This document shows, piece by piece, positions 20,684-22,225 of a DNA stretch of 22,225 nt (the first letter of the stretch is position 1; each line of letters begins with the position of its first letter). The notes beneath the pieces are model-generated. The model did not search any database. It was given only the letters and a program-made list of their open reading frames with translations, and was not told the DNA's origin. The DNA comes from a virus (lineage: Duplodnaviria > Heunggongvirae > Uroviricota > Caudoviricetes): IMG/VR virus record IMGVR_UViG_2693429779_000006; one strand, 5' to 3'. A program made the translations under genes and the position numbers.

Positions 20684-22144
20684 TTATCTTTTACCGAACC
20701 AGTTTGATCCCATTCCAGTACGTCTATTCCGTTTTGGTTTTTGTACTGTTTCTGGTTTTGGTTCTTCTACTTTATTTATCTCGTATTTAGTGGTTTCCTG
20801 TGCTTTATAATCGCGTAACTTCCTGAATGGTTGAGTACCTAATTTTGATTGGGCATATGCTATGGCGATCATTCCATAACAGATTAGGTCTAAAGCCTCA
20901 TTTCTTCTTTGACCTTTCTTTAATCGCCATACCAACTTACCACCAGCGGGTTTTAACTCCTCTGCTGAAAGTTGCTCAAAGAAATCTGATGGTAAGGTAC
21001 TACTGAAGCGGAGCTTAACCGGGGCGTTATCTGCCTCACTGGATAGCATCAGGTTCAGGAGGCGGCGTATCGTGTTCTTCTGTTCATGTACGTTTAGGAT
21101 CTGTAGTTTGTACCCCGCCTGAGTACTGGTCTTGAATAGTTCACCAGTAGTGGAGCTGCTACCCTTGATCGGATGATACTTACTCCAACGTGTAGTGAAT
21201 TTTTTCACAGTATCCGTAGCGTTACCGTTCCCTGCATCAATGAACACAGCCAGTGTAGGTACTATGCGACCTGATACAGTACTGAAATCCTGACGGCAAA
21301 ACTGATCTAAATCCTTCCAAGCTGGGGCTTCAATCTTCGTACAATCGTGGGAGTAGAAAAACTCATGCCCAAGTACATAAATGTTCTTTTCATCAAAACC
21401 TAAAAGCAGACTTTCCAGCCTATCACCCTGCTGATCAACTGAAATACACAACGCTAAGGTACTTTCAGGAATTTTATAAAGGTTAAATTCATCTTCTCGT
21501 AGGGATTCTAATTGGAGAATATCTAATTCTTTTTGATACTCATCTTCGAATGGCAAGCCCAATTCGTTATTGTAAAAGGTTTGAAGATTGAAGTTATATA
21601 GAGCATCAGCAAACTTTGAAACCATTTCAGTAATAGTATTCAGAGGTGAATACATTCTACTGATTTGATACCCTACTACACCCGGTTCCCCATCTGGATT
21701 AGTTGCAATCCATCGACCATTATCAACCATCTGATGCCGTGTATGTTCATCTATTCCCTCATTGCAATGAGGGCATAACAAACGAGTAGTAGTACTATCA
21801 GGAATGGATCTACCATTTTCTAATTGCTTAAATTCAAACGCTACTTGTTCCCATTCAAAAGTATATTCATGACCGCATGTGTGAGTAACAAAGTACCTAC
21901 GTTTATCACTGAGGTTGTACTCAGCATTGATTAAATCGTCTTTATACAATGGCGTGGAAGATACAACCACCAGTGAGTCACTACCGAAGGTACTGGTACG
22001 TGCTTCTGCCAGTTTGATTGGGTTCCCTTCATCAGTGATTTCGCAGCTACTGACCTCATCTAACAGAACACAGCGTGTTGTGATACCGCGAAGGTTCCCC
22101 GGCGTGTTGAGGTTCAACCAATAGATAAAAGTACCGTTCACCAT
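20684..22144 (-). CDS. Terminase large subunit (GpA-like), C-terminal 486 aa; N-terminal ATPase segment is not in this reading frame
   Basis: Sits immediately upstream of the portal gene. Begins near a Walker-B-like CVLLDEVS followed by ARTSTFG, then a Cys/His-rich nuclease-like region and a basic C-terminus. No Walker A motif is present. An in-frame TAG lies at 22184-22186, while a different frame is open from the window edge to 22181. Confidence 0.6.
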
Positions 22145-22225
22145 TTGTGTTTGTTTAGAGTTATTGGCGGCGTTCTTATCATTCTAGACTGGCCCCCTGA
22201 ATCTCCAGACAACCAGTATCACTTA

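Follow-up and report, generated by a model that had tools for sequence, protein, structure and literature searches.

The large-subunit terminase gene of a Shigella sonnei chromosomal prophage is almost certainly interrupted by the insertion sequence IS2, with duplication of the target site, and the contig that we analysed ends within the inserted element. The window, i.e. the whole stretch of DNA that was analysed, has a length of 22,225 nt and is identical to the entire 22,225-bp draft contig CXBH01000059.1 (our locus L009 is the range 10684–22225 of it, reversed). This contig itself shows only 41 nt of IS2; the other 1290 nt of the element fall past the contig end. The complete element and the 5′ part of the gene were found in complete genomes whose sequence is identical to that of the window, and it is from these, not from its own contig, that we infer the presence of both in the strain analysed here. 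The features are listed in Table 1.

Table 1. Features at the terminase–IS2 junction. Coordinates refer to the window unless a locus or accession is given.
Feature	Coordinates	Strand	Remarks
IS2, 1331 bp	L003 8630..9960 = HE616528.1 1453295..1454625	transposase ORFs opposite to terminase	continues from window-identical sequence
IS2, first 41 nt, left terminal inverted repeat (IRL)	22185..22225	+	+ strand TAGACTGGCCCCCTGAATCTCCAGACAACCAGTATCACTTA; 41/41 identity
GAATG, copy of the target-site duplication on the terminase 3′ side	22180..22184	-	flanks compared in L002, L003, L004 and L006
In-frame stop TAG	22184..22186	-	last two bases of IS2 (T, A) plus G of the duplicated GAATG
Terminase 3′ fragment, lambda gpA type	20684..22183	-	codons 134–632 of the reconstructed 632 aa, plus stop
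Start ATG of the called ORF	22142..22144	-	internal Met147 of the intact protein (alignment to full-length homologues)
Second open frame at the window edge	22179..22223	-	14 codons from the window edge; IS2 IRL antisense, then duplication, then first target base

The terminase fragment and the contig end

The program-made ORF list contains a terminase ORF of 486 aa on the minus strand (20684..22144). In a profile search, this ORF covers only positions 109–247 of the 247 positions of GpA_ATPase (Pfam PF05876); the ATPase domain of the window ORF is incomplete, lacking the first ~40% and with it the P-loop region. The nuclease domain GpA_nuclease (PF20454) follows C-terminally and is matched at profile positions 2–285 of 294 (E 1.6e-40). 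Residues 25–33 of the ORF read CVLLDEVSS, which is a Walker-B-like motif. We thus agree with the preliminary description that the ORF starts close to such a motif and lacks the N-terminal ATPase segment with Walker A.

The sequence upstream of the called ATG is also informative. When read upstream in the same frame, it agrees with intact homologues as far as the TAG, which we located on the minus strand at 22186..22184, where it had been reported before. The fragment that ends at this junction has a complete nuclease domain but, of the ATPase domain, only the C-terminal 60%, Walker B included. At the window end, the minus strand reads TAAGTGATACTGGTTGTCTGGAGATTCAGGGGGCCAGTCTA and then GAATGATAAGAACGCCGCCAATAACTCTAAACAAACACAAATGGTGAAC... 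No Shine–Dalgarno-like sequence was found in the CTAAACAAACACAA that precedes the ATG. According to the alignment, this codon is an internal methionine and not a true start, and the 486-aa ORF is the call of the ORF finder from the first internal ATG past the junction stop.

We next consider the bases between the stop and the contig end. In a megablast search against phage records, positions 22225..22185 match annotated IS2 ends with 100% identity, for instance the feature 'insertion sequence:IS2' in Shigella phage SfX. With 20684..22225 as query, only query bases 1–41 matched these records and the terminase part gave no match. A 3.2-kb query that starts with the same 41 nt was found by megablast at 18,392 places in 4,482 of 5,426 complete E. 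coli genomes; among the matches listed, all but two terminase matches cover just the first ~40–70 bases. Such a frequency is far beyond chance, and from the distribution of the matches we read the stretch 22185..22225 as non-terminase sequence.

The same ORF was found repeatedly at contig ends. An exact-protein look-up recovered the 486-aa ORF in 221 blocks of the collection, and the other draft contigs that contain it stop 19–162 nt short of the GAATG junction, i.e. 72–215 nt before the called ATG. Contig ends this close to the junction typically arise when an assembly breaks off at a multi-copy repeat. The window is the whole of one short-read draft contig, in which the assembler halted at the multi-copy IS2, and for this reason it shows just 41 nt of the element.

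IS2 in complete Shigella sonnei genomes

The same region is present in the complete chromosome of S. sonnei 53G (HE616528.1; PMC5447701), from which we use positions 1444666–1466126 (L003), and in a second complete chromosome, CP026802.1. The reverse complement of the window shows 0 mismatches to 53G across 11,542 nt. Aligned over its full length (100%), the element that follows in 53G is 99.9% identical to the RefSeq entry 'IS3-like element IS2'. The element starts with TGGATTTGCCCCTATATTTCCAGACATCTGTTATCACTTAA, finishes with ...TTAAGTGATACTGGTTGTCTGGAGATTCAGGGGGCCAGTCTA, and has imperfect terminal inverted repeats.

The IS2 genes are oriented opposite to the terminase and comprise orfA (121 aa, HTH_Tnp_1) and orfB (301 aa, HTH_21 followed by rve and rve_3). 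The overlap of orfA and orfB contains an A6G run (CTTTTTT on the + strand of L003, 9546..9552), a putative −1 frameshift site. This run is the sole plausible programmed frameshift site near the finding and lies just outside the window. In two loci (L005 and L006), a fused OrfAB of 409 aa is annotated over IS2.

The target-site duplication of IS2 has a length of 5 bp (ISfinder), and a 5-bp direct duplication is a hallmark of transposition of IS2 and the IS3 family. Our literature search returned no usable statement of the length of IS2 or the size of its duplication; the 5-bp duplication was observed directly here. We found GAATG on both flanks of IS2 in L002, L003, L004 and L006, where the left flank ends with ...GATAAGAATG and the right flank starts with GAATGATAAG. 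In L003, the layout is ...AACCGATAA-GAATG, then IS2, then GAATG-ATAAGAACGCC... The right IS2 junction is identical in all nine independent assemblies compared (9/9), complete genomes included.

One of the loci differs on the left side. In CP179990.1 (L005, 7218..8630), the right junction is the same, whereas the left flank is unrelated (…CTCTACGCTGTT) and lacks GAATG. We therefore conclude that the 5′ fragment of the terminase is not present in every strain. This configuration looks like an IS-mediated secondary deletion of the 5′ fragment together with the left arm of the prophage. An IS1 element and chromosomal genes adjoin the IS2 in this locus.

When comparing the element to known IS2, we find no notable difference. 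The terminal 41 nt are identical and, in the complete genomes, the length of 1331 bp, the 99.9% identity, the inverted repeats, orfA and orfB, the A6G run and the 5-bp duplication are all present. The case adds one more target to those of IS2, here the terminase gene of a prophage.

Reconstruction of the terminase gene

Directly left of IS2, we found an ORF fragment that matches GpA_ATPase (8356..8670 in L003; the call in L006 is 8227..8670). It is preceded by a small-terminase-like gene (7767..8312 in L003), the 3′ end of which is overlapped by 86 nt when the terminase is called from 8227. We deleted IS2 and one copy of GAATG in silico from L003 and obtained one continuous ORF, which has 632 aa when started at the ATG at L003 8227 and 589 aa when started at 8356; the uninterrupted junction of the empty site reads GTAACCGATAAGAATGATAAGAACGCC. 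The reconstructed protein matches GpA_ATPase at positions 14–247 of 247 (E 6e-50), i.e. a near-complete ATPase domain, and in addition GpA_nuclease. In the 632-aa protein, both domains stand in the order that is canonical for the lambda gpA type. Both gene halves share one frame once IS2 and one copy of the duplication are removed, so that no frameshift is needed or implied.

The reconstructed protein was compared to intact homologues. It has 83% identity to an intact 617-aa 'terminase gpA endonuclease subunit' from an E. coli prophage over 618 aligned residues; there are only 3 gap positions, which all lie towards the C-terminus and away from the junction. In a search of ~5.8 billion protein clusters, the best match among those listed has a length of exactly 632 aa. 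Full-length homologues have lengths of 617–646 aa (Enterobacter, Klebsiella, Salmonella and Yersinia) with at most 93% identity among the matches listed, and no intact allele of this exact prophage closer than 93% identity was found among the clusters listed in that search. The identity of the reconstructed terminase to intact ones from prophages of Enterobacter, Klebsiella and E. coli amounts to 83–93%. An alignment to intact GpA-family terminases had been proposed as a check in the preliminary description; in our alignment of eight sequences, the reconstructed gene is colinear with its homologues and gap-free through the junction. Compared to intact gpA terminases, the S. sonnei gene differs in being a pseudogene that is cut at codon 134, the window ORF of which has no complete ATPase domain.

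The gene neighbourhood is also that of the lambda gpA type. In the E. coli homologue, the order is small terminase, large terminase, a hypothetical ORF of 180 aa, portal, and a protease–capsid fusion. The gene order in 53G is the same, with the small terminase upstream and the portal (Phage_portal_2) downstream; an ORF of 176 aa lies between the large terminase and the portal.

In the part of the protein that is encoded upstream of IS2, the residues QLLKT (Q76–T80) are invariant in the alignment of eight sequences. Their conservation and position, together with what is known of the GpA family, suggest that SQLLKTT is the P-loop-like segment of the family. To anchor Walker A, we also compared the reconstructed terminase to the sequences in the PDB and obtained no match.

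Alternative explanations

The 486-aa product, with its partial ATPase and its nuclease, might be expressed via read-out transcription from IS2 and serve a domesticated function, which we consider very unlikely. We see an equally slim chance that S. sonnei keeps and expresses the truncated terminase together with the intact head and tail module for a domesticated function, as a nuclease or as a remnant that produces particles, a reading for which we found no support. It is true that the window strain and 53G have identical and intact copies of the ORF and of the structural genes downstream; however, S. sonnei lineages differ by only ~0.023% (PMC7373316), at which ~2–3 differences are expected in 11.5 kb, and identity between strains thus says nothing on selection. 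Furthermore, the P-loop part of the ATPase is absent, Met147 is not preceded by a Shine–Dalgarno sequence, and other IS copies and a deletion in the same prophage point to decay.

It is extremely unlikely that the contig is chimeric or wrongly terminated and that the gene is intact in the real genome. The contig end is an assembly product, with the break inside a repeat, but the finished genomes HE616528.1 and CP026802.1 carry the complete IS2 and its target-site duplication inside the gene, and the ~5.8-billion-cluster collection yielded no intact allele above 93% identity among the clusters listed. An assembly artefact thus accounts for the contig end but not for the disruption, because the disruption is present in finished genomes.

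The preliminary description had proposed that a shift of one nucleotide at about 22181..22186 joins the terminase ORF to another minus-strand frame at the window edge, with a mutation, a sequencing error or a rare programmed shift as the possible causes. The site of the lesion was placed well, as the gene is broken at 22184/22185, and two minus-strand frames do abut here, with TAG in one and TGA five bases on in the other. The edge frame is open for 14 codons as described; its TGA, however, lies at 22181..22179 and not at 22181..22183. Followed into 53G, this frame proves to be the last part of an open stretch of 53 codons plus stop (L003 9805..9966), which lies nearly entirely within IS2, antisense to the IS2 leader, and stops 6 nt beyond the end of the element. 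We found no similarity to terminases for the 53-codon frame in 53G. The extension upstream, which had been suggested as a check, thus shows that the edge frame does not encode a terminase ATPase domain, an outcome which the preliminary description had itself named as a refutation; the frame is the left inverted repeat of IS2 read antisense. The true upstream part of the gene lies 1336 bp away and shares its frame with the downstream part. A frameshift is also contradicted by the junction that is common to the nine assemblies, finished ones among them, and a programmed ribosomal frameshift by the finding that the two frames at this junction do not encode one conserved protein. We therefore assign a vanishingly small probability to a frameshift of any of these kinds. 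The suggestion of an inactivating mutation in a defective prophage was right in spirit, although the cause is the 1331-bp IS2 with its 5-bp duplication.

Phage terminase genes are known hosts of introns, inteins and homing-endonuclease cassettes, and a GIY-YIG ORF is present elsewhere in the prophage. That a self-splicing intron, an intein or such a cassette has left the terminase functional nevertheless has practically no probability, as the insert has the inverted repeats and the oppositely oriented transposase ORFs of a canonical IS2 and is flanked by a 5-bp duplication of the target, which marks transposition and not intron or intein homing, and as an Rfam scan (E-value mode) of 20000..22225 gave only three chance-level matches, none of them, and thus no intron, near the junction.

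The surrounding prophage

IS1, IS21-type and IS3-family elements and the deletion in CP179990.1 indicate further decay of the surrounding prophage. In some strains, IS1 is found at the left border of the prophage and an IS21-type element in the early region. The window contains an intact tail-tip or host-specificity-like gene of 1100 aa (4497..7799, minus strand; Phage-tail_3, fn3 and Phage_Tail_Tip), whereas the corresponding gene in S. sonnei 53G is split by another IS3-family element (L013 634..1802). The IS load thus varies between strains within one prophage.

Several other genes of the prophage are worth describing. A fused prohead protease–major capsid protein of 614 aa (16842..18686, minus strand; Peptidase_S78 and Phage_capsid) overlaps the end of the portal gene (18634..20142, minus strand; Phage_portal_2, 502 aa) by ~50 nt. 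Between the head genes and the tail-tube gene lies an ORF of 883 aa with a Peptidase_S74 domain, an intramolecular chaperone (13442..16093, minus strand). This placement is unusual for a fibre- or spike-like protein; the counterpart has 808 aa in L005, and in L010 it is a call of 669 aa at a shifted position. The ORF of 737 aa at 9961..12174 (minus strand) is probably the tape measure. Two small ORFs of 103 and 120 aa (12164..12870, minus strand) are located just before it, in a layout that resembles a tail-assembly-chaperone pair. In such pairs, a genuine programmed −1 frameshift is common. At the other end of the window, a SegE-type GIY-YIG ORF of 144 aa, which is homing-endonuclease-like (2097..2531, minus strand), adjoins a phage lysozyme gene on the opposite strand (2568..3017, plus strand).

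The contig break at window position 1 was also inspected. Comparison with other assemblies showed no IS end at positions 1..55, and megablast of window positions 1..2500 against E. coli genomes gave one weak match. Past position 1, other assemblies run on with an ORF of 151 aa and then mipA, yeaE and gapA-like chromosomal genes. The break may be due to a strain-specific insertion or to low coverage.

Implications

Taken together, IS2, an element of the IS3 family with a length of 1331 bp, has almost certainly transposed into codon 133/134 of a lambda gpA-type terminase gene in an S. sonnei chromosomal prophage and has thereby duplicated 5 bp of the target, GAATG. A distance of 1336 bp now parts the first 134 codons from those that follow. 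The stranded 5′ part encodes the N-terminal ATPase segment with the conserved, P-loop-like SQLLKTT, and the remainder past IS2 encodes the nuclease domain and what is left of the ATPase, Walker B included, with an in-frame TAG created by the IS2 junction. Because IS2 divides the P-loop part from Walker B and the nuclease, and because a stop stands at the junction, the large terminase subunit is probably non-functional. With its terminase inactivated, the prophage would be unable to package DNA. These functional consequences are predictions from the sequence.

The locus is a disrupted GpA-type terminase, i.e. a pseudogene in a degraded prophage, and as such represents routine and already known biology. 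It also serves as a caution for the annotation of draft genomes, as an apparent truncation or frameshift at the very end of a draft contig often reflects a multi-copy IS that interrupts the gene and at which the assembler stopped. All Shigella species show an expansion of five IS, among them IS2 (Hawkey et al. 2020, PMC7373316), and a median of 286 IS insertions has been detected per S. sonnei chromosome (PMC7373316). The terminase is an instance of the IS-driven pseudogenisation described for Shigella, from which it shows no difference, including the breaks of draft contigs at IS copies (PMC7373316). The finding raises no new question, and a packaging-defective prophage in S. sonnei would fit well with what is well documented for Shigella, namely IS expansion and the decay of the genome.
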